Shown piece by piece: positions 1 to 62,291 of a stretch of DNA of 64,000 bases. Location of the stretch: positions 14,670-78,669 of the forward strand of contig JBAZUP010000002.1 of NCBI GenBank assembly GCA_041661385.1. Reading direction: 5' to 3'. The stretch's first letter is position 1. Every line of letters begins with the position of its first letter. A program made the translations under genes and the position numbers. The DNA comes from Patescibacteria group bacterium (GTDB taxonomy: Bacteria > Patescibacteriota > Patescibacteriia > Magasanikbacterales > GWA2-37-8). Under the pieces are notes generated by a model, which was not told where the DNA came from, ran no database searches, and saw only the letters and a list, made by a program, of their open reading frames with translations.

Positions 1-506
1 TTATAGATTATTTTTGAACCATCCGGATATTCTAGGACCGCTTTGTCTGTTGCTTTGCTCCAAGTAACATTTTTAACATTATAAAAGACCTGACTTGATA
101 ATTCGCGCACGCTTCCGTCCGGGCCAATGCCGTAAAATTTTCCATCGGAGCCATTTTGGTATCGAACGCTGCCAGCGGTAGCTACGGAAGGAAACAAAGC
201 AAAATCTTTTGTTAGAACAGTTTCTTTTTCCGGGCGATAATAGTTACTTCCGGTTGGTCCTGGTATAACATTTGCGGTAGGTAGTCCGCCGGTTTCAGTT
301 TCGGTTCCTCCAGTACCCACAGTAGAAGTTCGGTTGCCGGCTGGGTTGAAACGGTTGTCTCCGGTTCGTTGTCCGCCGGTTGGGGGTTGATTATTTCCTG
401 TTCCAACTTCAGATTTTTTAAAAACAGAATATAGCGCCCAGCCAATCGCAATGGTAATAAAAATTAATCCGCCGATTAAAACCAATCTTTTGACAAGTGG
501 AGACAT
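1..506 (-). CDS. Hypothetical membrane-anchored protein, 3' end truncated by the window edge. It has an N-terminal TM helix, then a Gly/Thr/Pro-rich low-complexity linker, then a globular C-terminal region.
   Basis: ATG at 506-504 (minus strand). The frame stays open to position 1 with no stop, so it is absent from the ORF track. Translation MSPLVKRLVLIGGLIFITIAIGWALYSVFKK...GTGGTETETGG... was checked codon by codon. The competing 79-aa ORF 212-451 in another frame looks non-protein-like. Confidence 0.5.
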   Translation of the reverse strand, partial: MSPLVKRLVLIGGLIFITIAIGWALYSVFKKSEVGTGNNQPPTGGQRTGDNRFNPAGNRTSTVGTGGTETETGGLPTANVIPGPTGSNYYRPEKETVLTKDFALFPSVATAGSVRYQNGSDGKFYGIGPDGSVRELSSQVFYNVKNVTWSKATDKAVLEYPDGSKIIY

Positions 507-516
507 AGTTTAAAAA

Positions 517-1332
517 TTAAGCAGCTTTTTGGCCAGCCGTTGGCTCATTCGCCGCCGGCAAATTATTAAATTGAGCTTGTTGAACTAAAGATTCTTCTTG
601 GGCCTCTTGCCGTTGTTGTTCATCCTGAGCTGCCATCAGATATTGTTTCAAAGCCTTACTAACTTGTTTTGTTGCTTTGGAGACAACTTTCGACAAACGG
701 GCTAGGGGTACTTTTTCCTGAAAAACCATGAAGATTAATAACCAAAATGGCGCAATGAGTATCATGATTAAAGGGCCCACGATAAAAATTGGTAAGGATG
801 CGGTAAAGGCTTCCACCCAGGTTATGGTTGCATCGGCAATGGCCGCGCCAGATTTGGCAATTTTTAAACGACGATCGAGTTTTTTTAAAATTTTAATTCT
901 TCCTCCCAAATCGGAAACCTTAAAGGCGGACAAACTTCCTCCGATCCCGGGAATAGTTTTTAAAATTGCTGCTGTATCACCAGAAAAAAGATCGCCTTTT
1001 ATTTTGCCGGATGAGTCGTTAAGGCCGGCATTTGCAGATTGTCTCAGCATGGCTTGGTTTTGGGCCTGCTGTCTTTGAATTTGTTGTTGATTGGCAATCT
1101 CCGCTTCTTGTCCTTCCGGCACTTTATTCGGTTCGCCGCCCGTGCCACTTGGCTTATCAACAATAATATCCGCTTTGTGGATTGCGGGGTTTTGCCAGCT
1201 CGCCATTTCGGTGGCAATATCATCCTGCTGACGCGGGTTGCCAGCAGGTGGAGGGGAACTCAGATTACTTTCGTCTTCAAAGTTATCCTTTTCTGGCCCC
1301 TCATCCAAATTGTATTCTCCATCCTCCGACAT
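517..1332 (-). CDS. Hypothetical membrane protein with an acidic/Gln-rich N-terminus and one central TM segment
   Basis: 271-aa ORF with hydrophobic stretch LPIFIVGPLIMILIAPFWLLIFMVF. It is tightly packed between clpC and the next minus-strand gene, so probably in the same operon. Confidence 0.45.
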   Translation of the reverse strand: MSEDGEYNLDEGPEKDNFEDESNLSSPPPAGNPRQQDDIATEMASWQNPAIHKADIIVDKPSGTGGEPNKVPEGQEAEIANQQQIQRQQAQNQAMLRQSANAGLNDSSGKIKGDLFSGDTAAILKTIPGIGGSLSAFKVSDLGGRIKILKKLDRRLKIAKSGAAIADATITWVEAFTASLPIFIVGPLIMILIAPFWLLIFMVFQEKVPLARLSKVVSKATKQVSKALKQYLMAAQDEQQRQEAQEESLVQQAQFNNLPAANEPTAGQKAA

Positions 1333-1333
1333 A

Positions 1334-3862
1334 TTACTTCACCGATAAATTATTATCAGTTACGGAAAGCGTATAACGCTTTTTTATTTTTTTACCAAGA
1401 ATAATGTCTGACATTAGATTTTCCACTCGCTCGCGCACAAAGCGTCGTACCGCTCTCGCGCCGCTGCCTGTTTCTGGCAATTGGGAGATGACCCATTCAA
1501 GGACTTTTTCATCTGAGGTAAGCGAGGTGCTGTAATTAGTGAGTTGTTCGTTGAATTTTTTTATTTCAAGATCTGCTAAACGGGTCAGGGTCTCACGTGA
1601 AAGCGGTTTGAAGAATACTATTTTATCAAGGCGGTTGATTACTTCTGGTGAAAAATATTCTTTTAATTTTTCAGTTGCTCGTTCCTGAACATCTTTACTG
1701 TCCGTTGAATCCTTGCCGAAGCCGAAGGAAGTTTTTTTGAGATCAGCGGCGCCGTAGGAGGTGGTGAGAATAATTATTGAGTGTCGCAAAGAAACGGTTT
1801 TTCCTGTTGAGTCGGTTATTTCACCGTTTTCTAACATTTGCAAAAGCAGTTTTACGATATCGCGATGCGCTTTATCAATTTCATCAAATAGTATTACGCA
1901 GTGCGGGTTCATTTTAATTTTGTCGGTAAATTGGTTGCCTTCTTTAAAACCGATATATCCTGCCGGCGAGCCGAGTAGTTTTGAAACGCCAAAGCTTTCG
2001 TTGAATTCGCTCATGTCTAGTTTGATAAATGATTCACGACTCGAATAAAGTGTTTTGGCTAAAATTTTTGCTAGTTCGGTTTTGCCGACTCCGCTTTCAC
2101 CCACGAACATAAAAGAAGCGAGCGGCCGTTCGGGGTGGGAGAGTCCAAGTTTCGCTTGTCGAACTTGCCGGCTGACATCTTTCAAAGCTTCGTCTTGTCC
2201 GACAATATGTTCGGCAAGCATTTTTTCCAGATTATCTAGTGATGATGAATCGTCGAGAAGCAGGTCGCTTGGTTTGGTGCCGATAATTTTAGCGACTTGC
2301 AGTAAAATATCTTTTTCAGTAACAACTCCGATTAACTCAATTTTTTTATTTTTGCTTTCCAAAGCAGTTTTTTTGAGTTCAGCGCGGAGTTTGTCTTCTT
2401 CTTTTTTCATTTTTACCGCTTCATCAAATTTATCTTCTCTTGCTGCCGCTTCTTTTGCCGCCACGACAATTTCTATTTTCTGTTCAAGGCGTGAAAGTTT
2501 ACTGTCGCGCGCCGAGCTTTTTACACCGAGGCGCTTTGCTGCGGCAGTTTCGTCTAATAAATCGATTGCTTTGTCTGGTAAAAATTTGTTGGTGATATAG
2601 CGTTCAGAAAGTCGCACTGCGGCCTCAACTGCTTCATCGCTAAAACCAACCTTATGATAAAGTTCGTAGTTTTGTTTTATTCCTTTTAAAATTTTTATCG
2701 CATCTTCGGTGTTTGGTTCTTTGGCATAAACCGTTTGAAATCGGCGTTCCAAGGCGGCGTCGTGCTCGATATATTTTTTAAATTCTGCCGGAGTAGTCGC
2801 GCCTATACAGCGGAGTAGTCCGCGAGATAGTGCGGGTTTCAAAATATTTGCCGCGTCCATGGTGCCTTGGTTCGATCCGGCGCCGACAATATTATGAATC
2901 TCGTCGATAAATAAAATAATATTTGGATTGCTGGTAGCTTCTTCAATAACTTGCCGAAGGCGGGCTTCAAATTCACCTCGGTAAATAGTGCCGGCGATAA
3001 GCATGCTCATGTCGAGCGTATAGATTTTTTTATTTAACAGGATATCCGGCACTTTGCCTTCGAGAATTTTTTTAGCTAAACCTTCGACGATTGCAGTTTT
3101 GCCCACACCTGGTTCGCCAAGAAGCAGGGGGTTGTTTTTTGTGCGTCGGCAAAGAATTTGAATCACGCGTTCAATTTCGTTGTCTCTGCCAATGACCGGA
3201 TCAATATTTTTTTGTACCGCCTGATTGGTGAGGTTCGTGCCAAAAAATTCTAAAACCGATTCTTTTTTCTTGTTTACTTTGGGCGGAGTCGTAGAAAGCG
3301 GAGCAATTTCTTCTTCAAGATTAATATTTTTTTCAACATTGTCTTCAATTTTTTTCGCCACTTCTGTTATTTCAGTAAGGTGAGGGAAGTGAGTCGCATT
3401 AGAAAGCACCGTATCAAGTTGTTTCAGCAATTCTTCCATGTCAACAGCGTTTACTTGCAGCACATCGACAATCAGGGGGTCTTCGGCTTCGACAAGAGCA
3501 CTAAATAAATGCTCGGTGCCGATATAATTATGATTATTGTCTTGGGCAATGGCCATGGCTTTCTCTAAAATCGTTTTAGTGATTGGAGAAAGTGGAGTCA
3601 GAGTTTGTTCTTTTACGGTGCGGGGTGGAGTATGGAGTAAATCGGTTTTGCGCACCGGCAAACTAAGCAGGGCTTGCTCAATAGTTTTAGGTGTAATTTT
3701 TAGGCGATTAATAATTTCGGCTGCGACGGAACCATGTTCGCCAGAGACAGCAAAAAAGAGGTGGATTGGTTCAACCTCTAAATTTTTTAATTCGGCCGCA
3801 AGATGAATACTGCGGGCAAGAACATCTCGCAGGTGAGAGGAAAATCGGTCAAGTAAATTCAT
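1334..3862 (-). CDS. clpC: ATP-dependent Clp protease ATP-binding subunit, ClpC-like (two AAA+ modules, short M-domain)
   Basis: 842 aa. Clp-N repeats at the N-terminus. Walker A motifs [15 protein letters not shown] and [15 protein letters not shown]. Short coiled-coil linker (ClpC-like rather than ClpB-like). An FGF loop consistent with ClpP docking. Confidence 0.85.
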
Positions 3863-14213: not shown

Positions 14214-14600
14214 ATGGTTATAACGCCTCAAGATATTTTGTACCTCGTAATATCATTTTGCGTGGTATGGGTAACAGTATTTCTGTGCTGGACTTTTTAT
14301 TACCTCATGAAGCTCCTGCGCACCACCAACCAGATTGTTGATGAATTTCGCACCCGCTTACAAACTTTGTCAGAAACTATTAATTATGTTCGCGGTAAGG
14401 TAGATCACATGTCCGGACTCATGACTCTTGCAACCGGCGGAGTGTCAGAATTGGTAAAAAAAATGGTGACAAAAAAAGCTAGGCAATGGGTAGACGACGG
14501 AGCTGATCAGTTTAGTGATGCTGCCAAGGATGCAGTTGATAAAGCCGTCGCCGCTACGGCAAAAAAAATGAAAAAAGCGACCAGTAAAATAAAAAAATAA
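14214..14600 (+). CDS. Hypothetical small membrane protein with a Lys/Ala-rich C-terminus
   Basis: 128 aa. RBS AAGGAG. N-terminal TM helix ILYLVISFCVVWVTVFLCWTFYYL. Confidence 0.5.
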   Translation: MVITPQDILYLVISFCVVWVTVFLCWTFYYLMKLLRTTNQIVDEFRTRLQTLSETINYVRGKVDHMSGLMTLATGGVSELVKKMVTKKARQWVDDGADQFSDAAKDAVDKAVAATAKKMKKATSKIKK

Positions 14601-15043: not shown

Positions 15044-18000
15044 ATGTCGGATTTTATCCATCTACACACGCATTCTCACTATTCATTACTCGACGCTTTG
15101 CCAAAGATTGACGAGCTGGTTAAAGCTGCCAAATCGCAAAATTATTCTGCTGTTGCGCTTACCGATCACGCAAATTTGTACGGTGCGATTGAGTTCTATG
15201 AAGCATGCGTCAAAGAAGGTATAAAGCCGATTGTCGGTGTAGAAATTTATACCACTCCATTTGATCTGGATGATAAAAATATTGTTGATCACAAACAATA
15301 TCACTTGGTTTTGCTCGTGGAAAATTACGAGGGATATAAAAATTTATTGAAACTAATTTCTTTTTCTCATTTGGAAGGAACGCGCGGAAGGCCGCTTGTT
15401 GACCGAAAGCGTCTTAGTCAGTTTAAAGACGGGCTCATCGCTTTATCAGGGTGTATTGAAGGAGAGATACCGACCATTATTCGAAAAGAAAATAATTTTG
15501 AAAAAGCCAAAAAAGTCGCTTTGGAATTACAAAATATATTTGGTCCGGAAAGATTTTATTTAGAATTAAATGATTTACCCTCGCTTGAGGGGCAACTCGA
15601 GGTAAATTCCGAATTAATAAAAATTAGCAAAGAAACCGGTATTCCGCTCGTGGTCACTAGAGACACTCATTATATCAATACCGACGATACCGAAGCGCAG
15701 GATATTTTGACCTGTATTCGAGACGGACAAACTTTGGATGAACCGAACCGGCCCACGATGCAGGGGGTAGATTATTCTTTTGGTTCAGCAAAAGAAATAA
15801 TTGGTCGCTTTAAACATTGTCCGGAAGCAATTGAAAATACCGTCAAAATTGCCGAACGCATAAATTTAAAAATTGAATTAAATAAATGGCATTTTCCGGC
15901 GCTTGATATCCCCGGCGGGAAAACTGCCTCAGAGTATTTGCGGGCAGAAGTGTATGAAAGAATTTTGAAATTAACTGACTTGACCGATGAGGTTAAAAAG
16001 CGTCTTGAATATGAATTAGAAATTATTGAAAAAAAAGGCTACTCACCATATTTTTTGGTTGTAGCAGATTATGTTCGTTTTGCTCGTGAAAATGGCATCA
16101 TTGAAACTACCCGTGGCTCGGCCGCCGGTTCGCTAGTTTCTTACGCGATGGGCATTGTTTCCGTAAACCCATTATTTTTTAAACTCCCATTTGAACGTTT
16201 TTTAAACCCTTTCCGCCCCAGCCCTCCTGATATTGATGCGGATTTTGCGGATGATCGGCGTGATGAAATGATCGCATACGTCACCAAAAAATATGGCGCC
16301 GATAAAGTAGCTCAAATTATTACTTTTGGTACTATGGCGGCGCGCGGCAGTATTCGCGATGTCGGTCGGGCACTCGGTTATAGTTATGCTTTTTGCGACC
16401 AAGTTTCCAAACTGATTCCATTTGGAGCGCAAGGATTTAACATGACAATCGCTAAGGCGCTCGAAAACACTCCTGAACTTAAAGAATTATCGGTAAAAAA
16501 TCAACAGGTAAAACGTCTGCTTGATCTCGCTCAAAAAATTGAAGGCTGTGTTCGTCATACTTCAATTCACGCCGCGGGCGTGGTTATTGCTCCGACTCCG
16601 CTCACCGATTTTACTCCGGTTCAACACGAAGTTGGAGGTGAAAAACTTACCACGCAATACGAAATGCATTCTGTGGAAGCAGCCGGACTTCTTAAGATGG
16701 ATTTTCTTGGAATTCGCAATCTTTCTATTCTTGGACGAGCCGTGGAAATTGTGGAAAAGACCACCGGCAAACATATAGATATCCACAATCTTCAACCTTG
16801 GGATGATAAAAAAACTTATGAGATGCTAGCACGCGGAGAGACTGTGGGAGTTTTTCAACTTTCCGGTTCAGGTATGACGAGATATTTGAAAGAATTAAAA
16901 CCCGCCAGTATTTTTGATATTATGGCGATGGTGGCGCTGTTCCGCCCGGGTCCGATGGAATCAATTCCTGAATATATCAAACGCAAGAATGATCCGAGCA
17001 CAATTGATTATTTGGATAAGCGAATGAAAGATTATCTTGATCAATCGCTTGGTCTTATTGTTTATCAGGATGATGTGCTCTTAACCGCTATTAATCTTGC
17101 CGGTTATAACTGGGAAGAAGCGGATAAATTTAGAAAGGCGATGGGTAAAAAAATTAAGGCGGAAATGGACAAGCAAAAAGAAAAATTTGTTAAGGGGTGC
17201 CGTGAGTTTGGTAAATTGCCGGAAGCAAAAATACATCGTTTATGGGAGCTTATTGAACCATTTGCGGCGTATGGGTTTAACAAAGCTCATGCCGCGAGTT
17301 ATGGGGTTATTGCTTATCAAACCGCCTACATGAAGGCAAATTTTCCGATTCAATATATGACTGCGGTGCTTATTGCCGAGAGCGGTGATATTGATAAAGT
17401 GCCATTCATAATTCACGAATGTGAACGCATGGGAATTAAAGTTTTACCTCCGTCTATTAATGAAAGTTTTAGAAGTTTTGCAATGATTAGCGCCGAAGGC
17501 GCGGAAACGCATATTCGATTTGGCTTAAATGGAATAAAGAATCTTGGCGAGAATATTGCCGAAGTTATTTATCGGGAGCGTAAAGAAAATGGTAAATACA
17601 CCAGTCTTGAAAATCTTTTAACCAGAGTAAAAGACCGGGATTTAAACCGACGATCGCTAGAAAGTTTAATTAAGTGTGGAGCGCTAGATGAATTTGGTTA
17701 TGATCGAGGGGTGCTACTTGGAAATAGCGATGTGATTATAGCGTTTGTTAAAGATCATCAAGAAGCAGGAGCGACTGCAAAAAAACAACATTCATTATTT
17801 GCGGGCAGTGCCATTGAATCTGTTTCAAAATTACGATTAGGCCCGGCCGCCAATGCGACCGCTGACGACAAGTTACATTGGGAAAAAGAATTACTTGGGC
17901 TATATGTTTCTTCGCACCCATTTTCTGGTTTTCAAAAAATAATGGAACGAGCGCTAACGCCAATCAGTGAATTATCCGGAGTTGGCAAGAAACAATGGGT

Positions 18001-41783: not shown

Positions 41784-41986
41784 AGCCTCGTCATTCTAGC
41801 TTTATTTTATTAATTAATCAATTATCAACAAAAAAATCCCTTGAAAGAAAATATAATATATGCTAGCATGAAGTATCCTTTTTTGGTTTTGTTCTTTCTT
41901 TGGCTGCGTGCTGCTTGTTGTGAAGAAGTTTTATTCACAAAGTGCAGTACGTAGCAAAACAGCGAACCATCATCCGGAGGCGGAAG

Positions 41987-42163
41987 ATGAATGATGCGAT
42001 TGAGGGCGGTGCTTTCATGGGTAGGTCTCTAGATCGGGGGAATGTCGCCACCAGTGGAAAGAAGCGAAGTCTTCACAATCTCGCAATCGATTTGTTTGCC
42101 CTCATGATGGGGCTTACGATGTGGCTCATCATTGTTGCCGTCTTCGTGGGTTTTGCCCACTAG
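41987..42163 (+). CDS. Small hypothetical protein (58 aa) with a C-terminal TM helix, in a GC-rich islet
   Basis: ATG preceded by GGAGG. TM helix LFALMMGLTMWLIIVAVFVGF. Followed by its own terminator. The track ORF starts at 41942. Confidence 0.35.
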   Translation: MNDAIEGGAFMGRSLDRGNVATSGKKRSLHNLAIDLFALMMGLTMWLIIVAVFVGFAH

Positions 42164-44859: not shown

Positions 44860-44871
44860 AAAATTCGCATT

Positions 44872-44905
44872 TCAAAAAGACCAGTGAAGCTGGTCTTTTT
44901 TTATT
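44872..44905 (+). terminator. Intrinsic terminator after trxA
   Basis: AGACCAGTGAAGCTGGTCT followed by TTTTTTTATT. Confidence 0.7.
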
Positions 44906-45300
44906 CTCGCTATCCCCGCCTACAACGCTTTGCGTAGCAATGCGGGCAGGGCTCAATCAATTTTAAGTTTACCATATATTCAATTTTCCTTAGCCCTGCC
45001 GGCGGCATCACTTTTCATAACTGAAAAGTAATCAAAAGGTTCTGGGGGCCGGCAGAACTCGTCGTGCGAACTCCTCAAACAGCTGGCGGCCCCCAAACCC
45101 CCGTTGGGTAATTAGTTTGTCAGCTTCGATTCCGAGCATATGTGAAACGACTGCAAACTTCCCGGCGAAATTAGTTTTTTCAATGCGACTTTGTACTTTT
45201 GAAAAAATCGTTAAGATTGAGCCGAGGAATTTGCGGAGTGGAGCATCAGCTCGGCGCCTTTTGGGCTCCACCCGTTTTGGGCGCACAAAATGGGTGGAAT
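44906..45300 (+). repeat. Copy A of a ~395-bp GC-rich hairpin-dense repeat (candidate structured RNA element)
   Basis: Near-identical over ~200 nt to 52955-53160, then ~70% identical with indels. Contains at least 5 strong stem-loops. ORFs 45117-45302 (+) and 45032-45364 (-) inside it are probably artefacts. Confidence 0.7.
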
Positions 45301-45399
45301 AGACAAATGAATAATAGATAACTAAACTAAAAGAGCGGCAGTTAAAAAATATTGTAATAGACAAGCGAATAAGCTAGAATAGCGAAGCTATCTTTATAT

Positions 45400-46014
45400 A
45401 TGTCTGAACTTCGGGAAGACAAAATAAAACCAGTTTTATTCTGTGATTTTGATGGAACTATTTGTCATGATCGATATTGGAGAAGTCTACCATCAGAAAT
45501 ATATGAAAAAGTGCAAAGTCTTCTTTTTGGTCTAGACAAGATCTTCATAAACGACTGGATGAGAGGAAAATATACAGCTGAAGAAGCCAATGAATATGTT
45601 TCAAAAAAAATCGATTTTCCATTTGAAGAACTTTGGAGTTTATTTGTGAATGACTGTAAAACAATGAAGGTAGATTCAGCTGTGCTAAACAAACTATCTG
45701 CATTGCGGAACGATTATAGAACTATTCTTTTGACTGGTAACATGGATAGCTTTTCAAGGTTTACAGTGCCGGCTCTGGAATTAAATAAATATTTTGATCA
45801 TGTCAGTAACTCGTATTATGAAGAAAAACACAAAACGGATAACAATGGCGAAATTTTTGTAGAATATTGTAATAAATTTAAAACGAATGTTTCCAATTCA
45901 GTATTAATTGATGATTCGCCAAAAGTTTGCCAGATATTTGCACATCTTGGTGGTACGGTAATGCAAATTACCCCCGAGACAGACATAAATTATTTTTTGG
46001 AAAATTCATTTTAA
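45400..46014 (+). CDS. HAD-superfamily hydrolase
   Basis: FCDFDGTI (DxDGT motif I) at the N-terminus. Motif II/III-like LLTGN and IDDS. Confidence 0.65.
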   Translation: MSELREDKIKPVLFCDFDGTICHDRYWRSLPSEIYEKVQSLLFGLDKIFINDWMRGKYTAEEANEYVSKKIDFPFEELWSLFVNDCKTMKVDSAVLNKLSALRNDYRTILLTGNMDSFSRFTVPALELNKYFDHVSNSYYEEKHKTDNNGEIFVEYCNKFKTNVSNSVLIDDSPKVCQIFAHLGGTVMQITPETDINYFLENSF

Positions 46015-46018
46015 AAAT

Positions 46019-51347: not shown

Positions 51348-51351
51348 ATCA

Positions 51352-51392
51352 TAAAACCCCCGACAGTAACACTGTCGGGGGGTTTTATTTTT
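51352..51392. terminator. Bidirectional terminator
   Basis: AAAACCCCCGACAGTAACACTGTCGGGGGGTTTTATTTTT. Confidence 0.7.
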
Positions 51393-51442
51393 AGCTTTTA
51401 TAAAAAAAATAGTAAATATTTTTTGAAATCCGCTGAGCTTTC

Positions 51443-52165
51443 TTATATTTTTTTAGCAACAGTTATGAGATGCCAAGCATTTATAAATGTGGATCCGTGT
51501 CCGACATAGTCATTTGAAATAATCTTTAGGTCGGCTTTTGAGATTAAAGATTTAATTTCTTCTTTGTGAAAGCAGTGAATGTATAAATTTTTTTTCTCTT
51601 CCCCAATCCATGAGTCATTTTTATCAAGAGATGGCAGTGATCTGCCTAACCAAAGATGCCAGAGTTTTTGTCGCGTGACAGAATGCCAGCATCGGACATT
51701 CCAATTGGCCATAAGAAGTTGCCCGCCAGGTGTCAACACGCGAGCAATTTCTTTAATTGCCTTCTGTCTTAATTCACTACTAGGGATATGGTGCAAAACA
51801 CCAAAACACAGAACAACATCGACTGATGCATCGGCAAGAGGGATATTCAAAACATCTCCCAACAATAGTTTTACGCGGATTGGGTTTGTACCCGTGTTAT
51901 GTTCTTTGATATAGAAATCTGCAGCCGCTAGCATTGTTTGTGAAATATCCTGGCCGATGTAATCTGTAATTTGTTTGTTGACTGCGGAAAAAGCGACGCC
52001 GTTACCACAACCTAGATCCAACAAACGATTTCCTTTACCATATTTATTCCATAGCTCTTTAAGTTGTTCTGGGGGTGTAATTCTGCTAGCGGCCCAATCT
52101 TTTGCCATTTTTTCATATATAATTGCATTTGACTTTAGAATAGCTTCAGCGATTTTCAAATCCAT
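51443..52165 (-). CDS. Class I SAM-dependent methyltransferase
   Basis: LDLGCGNGV motif I. 240 aa. Confidence 0.75.
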   Translation of the reverse strand: MDLKIAEAILKSNAIIYEKMAKDWAASRITPPEQLKELWNKYGKGNRLLDLGCGNGVAFSAVNKQITDYIGQDISQTMLAAADFYIKEHNTGTNPIRVKLLLGDVLNIPLADASVDVVLCFGVLHHIPSSELRQKAIKEIARVLTPGGQLLMANWNVRCWHSVTRQKLWHLWLGRSLPSLDKNDSWIGEEKKNLYIHCFHKEEIKSLISKADLKIISNDYVGHGSTFINAWHLITVAKKI

Positions 52166-52338
52166 ATGATTTATTTGATATGAAAGTTAATCAGAATTCA
52201 TTAAATGATTATTGTTACTACTATACCAGTTATTTTCTTCATAGTATAGTAATAGAATTTCATTAAAAATATGATATAATAATATTAGATATTTTGATAA
52301 AATAGTTAATGTAGTTATGTATAATTTCCACAAACAAA

Positions 52339-52944
52339 ATGAAAAAAGTAAAAGTATATGATTCGAGGGAGGGGTATAATCTCGCTGCGCACGAATATGA
52401 TAAGCGTGAAGCTTATCTTGGAAGTTTTGAAAAAAATCAACTCATCCCGTTGCTTGGAGATTTGAAGGGCAAGAAAGTTCTTGATGTGGGAGCGGGAACC
52501 GGCCGGTTATCGGTTTCATTTGCGAGACTAGGGGCAGGCGTTACCGCGCTCGACGTTTCGGAAACAATGCTTCAGGAATTATCAAAAAAGAACCGCAACA
52601 TTAAAACCGTAATCGGTGACGCGGAAAGTTTGCCTTTTGAAAACGAAGCATTTGATATTGTCGCCGCCGCTTTTCTTATTGTCCACTTGAAAGACCCGAC
52701 CAAATTTTTTGATGAAGCTTATCGCGTATTAAAGGACGGCGGAATTTTTTTAGTGACAAATATTAATCAAAAAGATCCGCCTAAGATCAAAGCCCACAAT
52801 CATGAGTTTGTGGTCGAATCGTTTTATCATCGCCCGGAGAAAATTAGGGAGATATTGGAATCTTTGGCGTTTGGAATAGAGAAAGAAGAGTTTATAAAAG
52901 AAAATGATGTTTGGATTAATCAAATAATTCTTGCTAGAAAATAG
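52339..52944 (+). CDS. Class I SAM-dependent methyltransferase
   Basis: VLDVGAGTGRLS motif I. 201 aa. Its promoter/5' end (TATAAT...CAAACAAAATGAAAAAAGTAAAAGT) is duplicated at the 3' end of comEC. Confidence 0.75.
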   Translation: MKKVKVYDSREGYNLAAHEYDKREAYLGSFEKNQLIPLLGDLKGKKVLDVGAGTGRLSVSFARLGAGVTALDVSETMLQELSKKNRNIKTVIGDAESLPFENEAFDIVAAAFLIVHLKDPTKFFDEAYRVLKDGGIFLVTNINQKDPPKIKAHNHEFVVESFYHRPEKIREILESLAFGIEKEEFIKENDVWINQIILARK

Positions 52945-52954
52945 TTTTACGCAT

Positions 52955-53350
52955 CTCGCTATCCCCGCCTGCAACGCTTTGCGTAGCAATGCGGGCAGGG
53001 CTCAATCAATTCAACACTTACCTTAATTCAATATTCCTTAGCCCTGCCGGCGGCATCACTTTTCATAACTGAAAAGTAATCAAAAGGTTCTGGGGGCCGG
53101 CAGAACTCGTTGCCGCGAGGCACCTCAAACAGCTGGCGGCCCCCAAACCCCGTTGGGTAATTGGTTGGTAAACAATTGGATTCCGAGCCTTTGTGGAACG
53201 AAAGCCAAATGTCCGGCGAAATTAGATTTTTTCAATGCGACCCTGCACTTTTGAAAAAATCGTTTTGATTTCGCCGAGACATTTGCCGAGTGAAGCATCT
53301 GCGAGGCAATTTTGGGGGCACACCTTTTGTTGCCAAAAGGGGTGTGGAAT
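52955..53350 (+). repeat. Copy B of the ~395-bp GC-rich hairpin-dense repeat
   Basis: Starts directly after the methyltransferase stop codon. Aligned to copy A in the text of the findings. Its last hairpin overlaps the putative RBS of the downstream ComEC-MBL gene. Confidence 0.7.
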
Positions 53351-53360
53351 AAAATGTTTT

Positions 53361-54191
53361 GTGACAAAAAACAAAATTTTAATAATCGCAATTATAATAA
53401 TCCTAGGGGGATTTTTTTATTTCCGCTATTCTGAAGCGGAACGCCACAAATTTAAGATTGTATTTTTAAATGTCGGCCAGGGTGATGCAACTGTAATACA
53501 ATTTGAAACTGGAGAAAAAATGTTGGTGGATTGTGGGCCTGATCGGGGGATTCTCTCGGCACTTGGTCGCAACCTGGCTTTTTACGACCGTACTATTGAT
53601 TACCTTTTAATCTCTCATCCCGATCTTGATCATTATGGCGGCTGTGTGGATGTTTTAAAAAATTATCAGATAAAAAAGATCTATATAAATGGACGGGAAA
53701 AAACCGACTCGTATTTTCGGGAGTGGAAAAGTGTGAGTACCGGATATTTAACTGAAATCGCCGGCGTCTCAACCACTCTCACCATTGCTTCATCGTCGTT
53801 CCGATTTTTTTCGCCGGACTTATCTTTGGTTTTTAAAAATAAAATATCCGATAATGATTATTCAATAATTTTTAAATTAAGCCATGGTAGCAGCAGTTAT
53901 TTGTTTACCGGCGACGCCGAAGAAACGCTGGAAAAATTATTAGTTGAAAAATATTGTCCGGAAGTAAATAATGCCTGTCCACTTCAGTCTGGTGTTTTGA
54001 AAGTTGGTCACCACGGTTCCGACGGATCTTCGAGTGAGTTATTTTTGTCGCGGGTGAAGCCAATTGAAGCTGTCATTTCGGTTGGCAAGAATAAATTCGG
54101 CCATCCGGGCCTGCGTGCCATCCGCCACCTTGAAAGAATTGGCGCGAAAATCAAACGGACTGATGAAAGCGGGGACATTTCTATAAAATGA
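53361..54191 (+). CDS. ComEC-type metallo-beta-lactamase-fold domain protein with an N-terminal TM anchor (detached C-terminal domain of ComEC)
   Basis: FLNVGQGDATVIQ ... ISHPDLDHYGG (HxHxDH) ... VGHHGS. GTG start at 53361. The in-frame ORF extending upstream to 53235 runs through repeat B and is not conserved with copy A at the protein level. Confidence 0.7.
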   Translation: MTKNKILIIAIIIILGGFFYFRYSEAERHKFKIVFLNVGQGDATVIQFETGEKMLVDCGPDRGILSALGRNLAFYDRTIDYLLISHPDLDHYGGCVDVLKNYQIKKIYINGREKTDSYFREWKSVSTGYLTEIAGVSTTLTIASSSFRFFSPDLSLVFKNKISDNDYSIIFKLSHGSSSYLFTGDAEETLEKLLVEKYCPEVNNACPLQSGVLKVGHHGSDGSSSELFLSRVKPIEAVISVGKNKFGHPGLRAIRHLERIGAKIKRTDESGDISIK

Positions 54192-54365: not shown

Positions 54366-54394
54366 TTGACAAAGTTGATAAAAAGGAGTATAAT
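54366..54394 (+). promoter_or_regulatory. Consensus promoter TTGACA-17-TATAAT, near-duplicate of the promoter at 6227
   Basis: TTGACAAAGTTGATAAAAAGGAGTATAAT vs TTGACAAAAGTGCAAAAAAGGAGTATAAT. Confidence 0.65.
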
Positions 54395-54399
54395 TCGAT

Positions 54400-54740
54400 G
54401 TTGTGACAGTACGGAATTAGCCATTTTTGGCTTATCTGGCTGACGATTTTGGCTTGTTTTGAGCCAAGGTCGGCAGCCGGATTTCCCGGCGCCACAACCA
54501 AAGGGGTCTTTAAAGACTCAAATGACGACCATCACCAGCTTCAGCTTTTCCCACGTTCACATCGATCGTCACACCGCGGGCGCCGTCGCGCCCTGACCCG
54601 TCGCCGCCGGCCGCCGAAGCCGACAGTTAGCGCCTGGTGCGCTACCTGACCGGTTAGGCCAACCAACTCCTCATGGAGGAGTCACATCGTGAAGATCACG
54701 AAGCCGAAGGTTCCGCTGTAGCGGATACAACCCCCAACAC
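54400..54740 (+). other. GC-rich (~58% GC) transcribed segment between the promoter and terminator with no convincing ORF: candidate non-coding RNA of unknown class
   Basis: Only ORFs are a TTG-initiated Arg-rich 66-aa frame without an SD, plus 24-aa and 10-aa fragments. Hallmark motifs of tmRNA (T-arm/CCA), RNase P (GGAAAGTCC) and SRP were looked for by eye and not found. Confidence 0.35.
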
Positions 54741-54778
54741 CGGGCGGCCGAGCAATCGGCCGCCCTCATCTTTTTTTG
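54740..54778 (+). terminator. Intrinsic terminator
   Basis: GGGCGGCCGAGCAATCGGCCGCCC followed by TCATCTTTTTTT. Confidence 0.7.
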
Positions 54779-62255: not shown

Positions 62256-62291
62256 CCTGCCCGCATTGCTACGCAAAGCGTTGCAGGCGGG
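62256..62291 (-). repeat. Isolated inverted copy of the 5' hairpin module of the 395-bp repeat
   Basis: CCTGCCCGCATTGCTACGCAAAGCGTTGCAGGCGGG is the reverse complement of CCCGCCTGCAACGCTTTGCGTAGCAATGCGGGCAGG at 52965-53000. The real groEL terminator hairpin follows at 62312-62345. Confidence 0.65.

Follow-up and report, generated by a model that had tools for sequence, protein, structure and literature searches.

A predicted structured non-coding element with a covarying 3′ hairpin upstream of a stand-alone ComEC-type MBL gene in Patescibacteria

The window analysed here, a 64,000-nt stretch of a Patescibacteria genome, contains a stand-alone MBL gene of the ComEC C-terminal type (53361–54191, + strand, GTG start, 276 amino acids) whose start codon closely follows the last hairpin of a repeated sequence. 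This arrangement raises the question whether the hairpin controls translation of the MBL gene or reached its position for reasons unrelated to that gene. The first-pass annotation had taken the former view and described a riboswitch- or thermosensor-like expression platform which occludes the only Shine-Dalgarno (SD)-like sequence of the gene and renders expression of a DNA-uptake nuclease domain conditional. The analysis presented below points in another direction: the repeat upstream of the MBL gene, termed copy B, probably represents a nomadic, structured non-coding element of ca. 0.4 kb which occurs in at least three copies in a small group of Patescibacteria.

Terminal hairpin and start codon of the MBL gene

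The terminal hairpin of copy B (53319–53346, + strand) is formed by the arms CACACCUUUU and AAAAGGGGUGUG, which build up 10 base pairs, including two U·G pairs, around an 8-nt loop with a folding energy of −12.0 kcal/mol. Its counterpart in copy A, the second copy of the repeat in the window, is longer and more stable (45268–45297, + strand, 12 base pairs, −19 kcal/mol). The presence of both hairpins, as well as the distance of about 100 nt between that of copy A and the ATG of the following HAD gene at 45400 (measured as 102 nt), had been correctly recognized before. Considered in isolation, the copy B hairpin is only modestly distinguished from chance (z = −2.45; 4 of 200 shuffled sequences fold equally well), but it belongs to an 11-member family in which the pairing is maintained by covariation. 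In the corresponding alignment (R1), which is model-fitted, and in this respect favours structure, and which includes both window copies, 92.6% of the cells are paired and five of the 11 pairs change on both sides; the covariation score was matched by none of 500 shuffles, and controls slid along the sequences reached at most 54% pairing. The covariance model derived from R1 scores 61.3 bits for copy A and 45.6 bits for copy B, both of which were part of the training alignment. The hairpin of copy B is also 92% identical over 48 nt to that of a homologous element in another genome (L153, see below). It is the element's own conserved and covarying 3′ module. Its conserved G·U and U·G pairs fit the + strand only, and its role is probably that of an RNA-level stem at the 3′ end which serves structure, stability or processing.

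The start of the MBL gene is best supported at GTG 53361. The identical NCBI protein (P0001; 100% identity over 100% of the query) comprises 276 amino acids and starts at this codon, and it contains the Pfam Lactamase_B domain (E = 8e-18). The N-termini of all 18 homologues compared consist of a short basic stretch and one transmembrane helix followed by the sequence ERHKFKV.FLNVGQGDA. An open reading frame in frame with GTG 53361 begins further upstream at ATG 53235; the resulting extension (53235–53360, + strand) is absent from the homologues and is made up of repeat sequence, and the pseudo-ORF in copy A (MRLCTFEKIV...) ends at a stop codon which is shifted out of frame by an indel in copy B. 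The earlier judgement that this extension is repeat rather than coding sequence is thereby borne out. The 318-amino-acid protein called for this DNA in another public record (L149) takes in the repeat and is wrong; the annotation should begin at GTG 53361. Stand-alone MBL proteins occur in thousands of Patescibacteria, the best 120 matches spanning 265–342 amino acids, and the “detached” ComEC domain gene is the normal state in the clade rather than the result of a disruption by the repeat.

The position of the hairpin relative to this start codon is not that of an SD-sequestering platform, in which the SD sequence or the start codon is paired in a regulatory helix. The SD-like stretch AAAGGGGTG, previously placed 13–20 nt upstream of the GTG, is found at 53336–53344, i.e. 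at −25 to −17, with its G-run inside the hairpin at −22 to −19, and the GTG lies outside the hairpin, 15 nt beyond its 3′ end. The designation as the only SD-like sequence is not meaningful in an organism which rarely uses SD sequences: GGAG, GAGG or AGGA was found at −15 to −5 in merely 8 of 51 non-overlapping long ORFs of the window, and the clear cases (at 14214, 25294, 33411 and 6373) begin at approximately −10. The genes groEL, leuS, fpg, nusA and yidC, both methyltransferase genes and the HAD gene are preceded by A/T-rich leaders devoid of an SD sequence, which the stretch GAAUAAAAUGUUUU in front of the MBL start resembles. In RNAfold predictions, the copy B hairpin gains weak AUUUUG/UAAAAU pairs which reach approximately position −6 relative to the start codon, and initiation may therefore be dampened to some degree; the GTG itself falls into a non-significant stem of −4.4 kcal/mol. 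Minimum free energy folds of the region gave one conformation only. An effect of the structured 5′ flank on MBL translation would be at most incidental.

Architecture of the element and its sites in the genomes

Copy A (44905–45301, + strand) and copy B (52954–53351, + strand) of the ca. 398-nt element are 84% identical to each other. Their similarity is a mosaic in which conserved blocks and variable loops alternate, with blockwise identities of 98%, 79%, 100%, 29%, 86%, 81% and 59% along the element; the fully conserved part includes a 71-nt block of the 5′ domain (53040–53110, + strand). Copies A and B fold far better than shuffled controls (z = −5.45 and −5.25, respectively), with equally good folds on both strands, and the G+C content of the element (49%) exceeds that of the window (41.6%). 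RNAalifold applied to copies A and B and the L153 homologue predicts a rod-like 3′ domain in the form of a long irregular helix (53182–53307, + strand), and 18 of the 99 predicted pairs are compensatory, among them those between the rod columns 354/451, 355/450, 364/442, 367/440, 368/439, 372/434 and 377/429. These changes suggest that the element is constrained at the RNA level, its transcription being putative. The hairpins at the 5′ and 3′ ends are dissimilar in sequence, terminal inverted repeats are absent from both copies (the test gave no better result than shuffles), and the 5′ flanks (TTTTAT and TTTTACGCA) resemble each other only loosely. No promoter-like or terminator-like site was found on the + strand within or at the end of either window copy; in particular, neither copy ends in the G+C-rich stem with a following U-tract that is expected for an intrinsic terminator. 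A small-protein gene was considered, based on a 39-amino-acid ORF in copy A and the pseudo-extension in copy B, and rejected, as an indel breaks the frame, substitutions fall into compensatory pairs, and the minus-strand ORFs are likewise frame-shifted between the copies.

The region upstream of copy B is occupied by a methyltransferase gene (52339–52944, + strand), and comparison of this junction with those of relatives is informative. In three closer lineages, whose MBL proteins are 75%, 66% and 63% identical to that of the window and whose methyltransferases have 201 amino acids, the methyltransferase gene runs 34 nt into the MBL gene, without a spacer (L006/L007, L003/L004/L005 and L008/L009); the element is absent at this position in L003, L006 and L008. 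It follows that copy B, with ca. 392 nt, was inserted specifically in the lineage of the window. Since the comEC gene for the DUF4131 and Competence domains also overlaps the methyltransferase gene in L008, L153 and L154, the split comEC–methyltransferase–MBL operon is ancestral in the clade, and the overlapping methyltransferase and MBL genes of the relatives are presumably translationally coupled. At the same junction, which is evidently permissive, L153 and L154 have another spacer of 230–250 nt that is conserved between the two.

In its simplest reading, the insertion is apparently flanked by a target duplication of ca. 39 nt. The left copy of the putative target (52911–52949, + strand; from the methyltransferase 3′ end through TTTTA) and the right copy (53342–53381, + strand) both align to the same single ancestral overlap sequence of L006. 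The right copy overlaps the last bases of the 3′ arm of the hairpin and supplies the new start region of the MBL gene. Shuffle tests with its upstream 35 nt gave 7/3000 (L006), 25/3000 (L008) and 149/3000 (L003), which corresponds to p values of roughly 0.002–0.05 for short A/T-rich alignments, and a direct comparison between the left and right copies in this A/T-rich DNA was not significant. The ancestral target GTGTGGGTGAATCAAAT resembles the 3′ end of the element (UGGGUGGAAUA in copy A), and the right junction of copy B hence lies in microhomology.

Copy A is located directly behind the strong terminator of trx, with the HAD ATG 99 nt beyond its end; a promoter for this copy was not found. 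The ancestral state of this site was read from the MBL relatives with long contigs, because the HAD homologues turned out not to be syntenic. In L153 and L154, trx is directly followed by fpg at distances of 65 and 22 nt, respectively, which identifies copy A together with the HAD gene as an extra of the window lineage; a target duplication was not detectable there. The third full-length homologue was detected by nhmmer (E = 3e-98) in L153 (GCA_027341455.1, approximately 175–678, minus strand). It is situated about 70 nt upstream of truB, with a promoter-like TTGAAA-N17-TACCAT between hairpin and gene, and it lacks the 36-nt palindrome nested in copies A and B while maintaining the overall architecture. 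The truB–infB intergenic region measures 140 nt in L155 and L156 and harbours other sequence in the window. The orthologous sites in relatives are therefore empty for each of the three known copies. Each copy is followed, after 15–102 nt, by a gene in the same orientation (MBL, HAD, truB; n = 3). The three full-length copies are distributed over two genomes, with two of them in ca. 83 kb of the window genome, as the ca. 19 kb past both window ends contain no further full copy; when genomes were scanned with a 24-mer of the element's 5′ core, 0 matches resulted.

Consistent with these comparisons we propose the following scenario. The element was inserted in the window lineage between the methyltransferase gene and the already stand-alone ComEC-type MBL gene. 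The left target copy would retain the C-terminus of the methyltransferase, while in the right copy the old MBL start, now out of frame, would have been lost and the sequence remodelled into a new N-terminus beginning at GTG 53361. Translational coupling would be replaced by a structured spacer of 416 nt. Transcription of the MBL gene most likely starts at the methyltransferase promoter, for which the TATAAT at 52320–52325 is a candidate, and reads through the element; its translation probably begins from an SD-less A/U-rich leader like that of most genes here. Any influence of the hairpin on the MBL gene, through lost coupling and a structured 5′ flank, would then be a by-product of the insertion and not a switch responding to a ligand or to temperature. 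The locus illustrates how an insertion can disrupt an overlapping, probably coupled gene pair and compel a new start codon to evolve.

The hairpin outside the element and the rival explanations

The hairpin is not confined to the element. A 19-mer from copy A, TTTTGGGCNCCACCCGTTT, was also found in public metagenome contigs, where it terminates RNA-like units of ca. 200 nt (L126, L141, L145), and a single Kazan genome of 0.7 Mb contains at least four such units (L129, L032 and a pair in L066). The six loci named define what we refer to as Kazan-type RNAs, an unclassified group characterized by a long covarying rod and the 3′ hairpin UUUUGGGCGCCACCCGUUU...AAAUGGGUGGC; in three of these rod-shaped sequences 15 of 58 pairs covary. 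The units of L141 and L145 are syntenic, being placed between recJ and secF. Behind the hairpins of L126, L141 and L145 the sequence continues with CAAAAAA, and behind that of copy B with GAAUAAAAUG. In L128 and L132 the terminal hairpin module follows unrelated sequence. The next gene downstream is convergent in 5/5 loci (L126, L141, L145, L129 and L128), and the hairpin at these loci closes a unit instead of preceding a start codon. An nhmmer profile built from Kazan-type RNAs only matched copy A at 45253–45304 (E = 4.5e-5) and left copy B unmatched; sequence homology between element and Kazan-type RNA is limited to ca. 50 nt at the 3′ end. A homology of the two rods, suspected by eye, was not confirmed by nhmmer.

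The element corresponds to no family of Rfam. Rfam at the gathering threshold returned two tRNAs only for the whole window, nothing meaningful at E ≤ 10 over 52800–53500 or the L141 unit, and only tRNA and tmRNA in ten loci. Neither a BLAST search of phage genomes with copy B nor scans of viral contigs for exact patterns produced a real match, and L002 was discarded as a chance match in G+C-rich coding DNA. The missing inverted repeats and the duplication of ca. 39 nt at copy B do not agree with a MITE. With the Correia elements (CREE/NEMIS) of Neisseria and ERIC/RUP-type repeats the element shares the non-coding nature, strong folding and dispersal over non-orthologous intergenic sites, and these repeats, too, often lie just upstream of genes, are co-transcribed and may have side effects on the expression of neighbours. 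In contrast to them, it is longer (0.4 kb), has no terminal inverted repeats, shows the ca. 39-nt instead of a short target duplication, is represented by two copies in ca. 83 kb, and contains long-range covarying helices suggestive of RNA-level constraint. Elements derived from IS200/IS605 and orphan ω-RNA/reRNA scaffolds resemble it in the lack of terminal inverted repeats, hairpins near both ends, strand specificity, a structured RNA body and variable sequence past the 3′ hairpin. However, the 5′ and 3′ hairpins of the element are unrelated, TnpA, TnpB and IscB genes were not seen nearby, HEARO and related Rfam models found no match, and IS200/IS605 elements do not generate target duplications.

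On this basis the proposed explanations can be weighed against that of a nomadic element. The riboswitch- or thermometer-like leader of the first-pass annotation, with a 3′ helix that hides the MBL ribosome-binding site and makes expression of the nuclease domain conditional, now appears highly improbable. It would account for a hairpin ending 15 nt before the start with predicted flanking pairs up to about −6, for the 100% conserved blocks in the 5′ domains of copies A and B, and for the location of all three full-length copies ahead of co-oriented genes; moreover, UUUU pairs with AAGG in a manner reminiscent of fourU thermometers. Indeed, RNA thermometers (fourU, ROSE) and SD-sequestering riboswitches likewise have a hairpin in the 5′ flank with pairing between a run of U and a stretch rich in A and G. 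Here, however, the paired G-run is 17–25 nt away from an unpaired start codon, the genome is mostly SD-less with its rare SDs near −10, and there is consequently no SD to occlude. The repeat that carries the hairpin is an insertion; L003, L006 and L008 lack it upstream of their MBL genes, and L153 and L154 have another spacer there. The hairpin precedes unrelated genes (MBL, truB and HAD) at 15, ~70 and 102 nt, so that neither the spacing nor the identity of the downstream gene is conserved, and the same hairpin ends stand-alone units with convergent genes behind them. Rfam riboswitch and thermometer models gave no match, and an alternative anti-sequestor pairing was not identified. Conditional expression of the nuclease domain is left without support.

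Two further explanations were considered. The copies may be paralogues of an ordinary trans-acting or housekeeping non-coding RNA, with copy B arising by segmental duplication and its adjacency to the MBL gene being without significance. Conserved blocks interspersed with variable loops suggest purifying selection rather than gene conversion, the compensatory changes and strand-specific G·U pairs count in its favour, and Kazan-type RNAs with the same 3′ hairpin do stand alone, in the case of L141 and L145 in a syntenic position. Yet neither window copy has a detected promoter or terminator, the homology to Kazan-type RNAs is restricted to the 3′ end, and three non-orthologous sites, empty in relatives, are better explained by mobility than by vertical inheritance; we regard this explanation as unlikely. 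Less plausible still, and decidedly unlikely, is a DNA-level mosaic of nested palindromes of the BIME/REP or Correia/RPE-like kind, whose apparent RNA structure would reflect stacked palindromes. The element contains an independently mobile 36-nt palindrome that enters hairpin apices, including those of other 36-mers, the downstream AGCCCTGCCGGCGG can pair with either end of this 36-mer, the terminal hairpin module is able to follow unrelated sequence (L128, L132), and both strands fold equally well. Against a pure palindrome mosaic stand the G·U/U·G pairs, consistent on the + strand only, the long-range helices with compensatory changes, which are not simple local palindromes, the L153 homologue with its architecture intact without a 36-mer, and the lack of terminal inverted repeats.

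The nomadic non-coding element is thus the explanation we favour. A bolder version of it, which we consider doubtful, would regard the element as a novel type of mobile, structured RNA which lands 5′ of co-oriented genes, re-wires their translation by its covarying 3′ stem-loop and hosts the 36-mer. Its movement might involve an RNA intermediate or template switching, as perhaps hinted at by the ca. 39-nt duplication and the microhomology TGGGTG(G)AAT at the junction.

The nested 36-nt palindrome

The palindromic module CCCGCCTGCAACGCTTTGCGTAGCAATGCGGGCAGG (52964–52999, + strand) recurs twice in the window, once with one change in copy A (44915–44950, + strand) and once just after groEL (62256–62291, minus strand), and one more 36-mer lies in the ca. 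19 kb beyond the window ends of the same genome. Over 115 species genomes of GTDB contain its 22-nt core, most of them as the exact full 36-mer; these genomes span many CPR phyla, and the module has sharp boundaries and unrelated flanks. CCTGC..GCAGG covaries with CCAGC..GCTGG. The 36-mer also inserts into a hairpin apex of a Kazan RNA and, exactly at the midpoint, into other 36-mers in inverted orientation. Viral contigs of IMG/VR do not contain it, and the literature searched contained no relevant report on the 36-mer, its peptides or structured or palindromic repeats of CPR. An intron in a tRNA D-loop was rejected as an explanation: the flanks of the 36-mer in this test were 5′ tRNA fragments, and after deletion of the 36 nt ARAGORN detected no new tRNA across the junction.

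The 36-mer is depleted in coding DNA, 19 of 118 instances being inside long ORFs compared to 291 of 575 random windows. When it does reside in a reading frame, it was in phase 0 in all ten ORFs examined, adding PARIATQSVAGG or PACNALRSNAGR/PASNALRSNAGW to the protein. Judged by their motifs, these ORFs, which include essential genes, probably encode, among others, IleRS, DnaG, an M32 carboxypeptidase and, in two species, TsaD. The 36-mer is identical in both TsaD orthologues despite their diverged flanks. The palindromic elements of Rickettsia offer the closest likeness, as they are also short, selfish-looking palindromic units found in intergenic regions, in RNA-like units and in frame within housekeeping genes, always in a tolerated reading frame. 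The 36-mer differs from them by its small size of 36 nt (12 codons), by being base-identical across many CPR phyla instead of confined to one genus, and by targeting hairpin apices, its own copies included. Element and nested 36-mer represent unclassified repeat families in streamlined CPR genomes, in which such repeats are unexpected, and a systematic survey of both would be worthwhile. As an observation aside from the locus discussed here, the 36-mer may matter more than the hairpin finding itself.

The 36-nt palindrome and the rod-shaped RNA-like units

The palindrome nested in copies A and B of the structured element (CCCGCCTGCAACGCTTTGCGTAGCAATGCGGGCAGG) is located at 52964–52999 (+) in copy B and, with a single G>A exchange, at 44915–44950 (+) in copy A. 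A further occurrence in the window lies on the minus strand (62256–62291), 14 nt past the groEL stop codon, and another one is at 17913–17948 of L151. Its 22-nt core is present in the genomes of more than 115 species across CPR phyla, most of which carry the full 36-nt palindrome exactly. The edges of the palindrome are sharp, and its flanks are unrelated between genomes. Within real genes it is inserted in phase 0, adding PARIATQSVAGG or PACNALRSNAGR to the product; judged by motifs alone, these host genes presumably resemble those of IleRS, TsaD and DnaG, among others. Inverted copies can contain the same palindrome inserted at their centre, and a hairpin apex of another RNA serves as a further insertion site. 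No occurrence was detected in viral contigs, and none in the literature searched.

A rod-shaped RNA-like unit, ca. 200 nt in length, was found on the minus strand of L126 (1840–2033), L141 (2045–2243), L145 (2010–2212) and L032 (about 2985–3200), twice on that of L066 (2515–2740 and 1478–1659), and on the plus strand of L129 (5445–5680). Strong covariation (15 of 58 pairs, based on three sequences) is accompanied by a conserved 3′ hairpin. The unit stands alone and, in two genomes, holds a syntenic position between recJ and secF. One Kazan genome of 0.7 Mb harbours at least four copies, three of which are interrupted by the palindrome. The unit matches no Rfam family and is unclassified.

Insertions around copies A and B

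Copy A and the HAD hydrolase gene (44860–46018) are jointly missing from the contigs of two relatives (L153 and L154), where trx is directly followed by fpg; HAD homologues in other genomes reside in unrelated contexts. Upstream of copy B, a minus-strand gene for a 240-aa methyltransferase (51443–52165, within 51348–52338) separates the ComEC Competence-domain gene from the plus-strand methyltransferase gene, with which the former overlaps in L008, L153 and L154. The 240-aa methyltransferase gene is apparently a second lineage-specific insertion in the comEC–methyltransferase–MBL operon. In the more distant relatives L153 (9772–10000) and L154 (9452–9702), the methyltransferase and MBL genes are separated by a non-coding spacer of 230–250 nt, conserved between both and not homologous to copy B. 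Non-coding inserts appear to occupy this junction repeatedly. Public calls of the MBL gene differ in length, comprising 318 aa with the repeat included (L149, 829–1785) and 276 aa in the NCBI entry (P0001). Another assembly of the same organism carries copies A and B on separate contigs.

Translation initiation and further candidate elements

SD-like motifs precede only ca. 16% of the long ORFs of the whole window, and in several promoters TATAAT lies no more than about 15 nt away from the start codon, as at 52320–52325 ahead of ATG 52339; both features suggest that SD-independent or near-leaderless initiation is widespread. Between the MBL and YkuD genes, a near-consensus promoter (TTGACA-N17-TATAAT, 54366–54395, +) precedes a G+C-rich stretch of ca. 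375 nt that lacks a convincing ORF and closes with a canonical terminator (54742–54778, +). The interval 54366–54778 (+), which has no Rfam match at E ≤ 1, is a candidate for an ncRNA of unrecognised type; the corresponding interval of L003 contains only small hypothetical ORF calls. The truB–infB divergent region, just 140 nt long in close relatives, accommodates a 58-aa hydrophobic ORF (41976–42163, +) with its own terminator and one of the few strong SD sequences of the window (GGAGG, 7 nt spacing); this ORF could encode a small membrane protein or represent a type I toxin-like gene.
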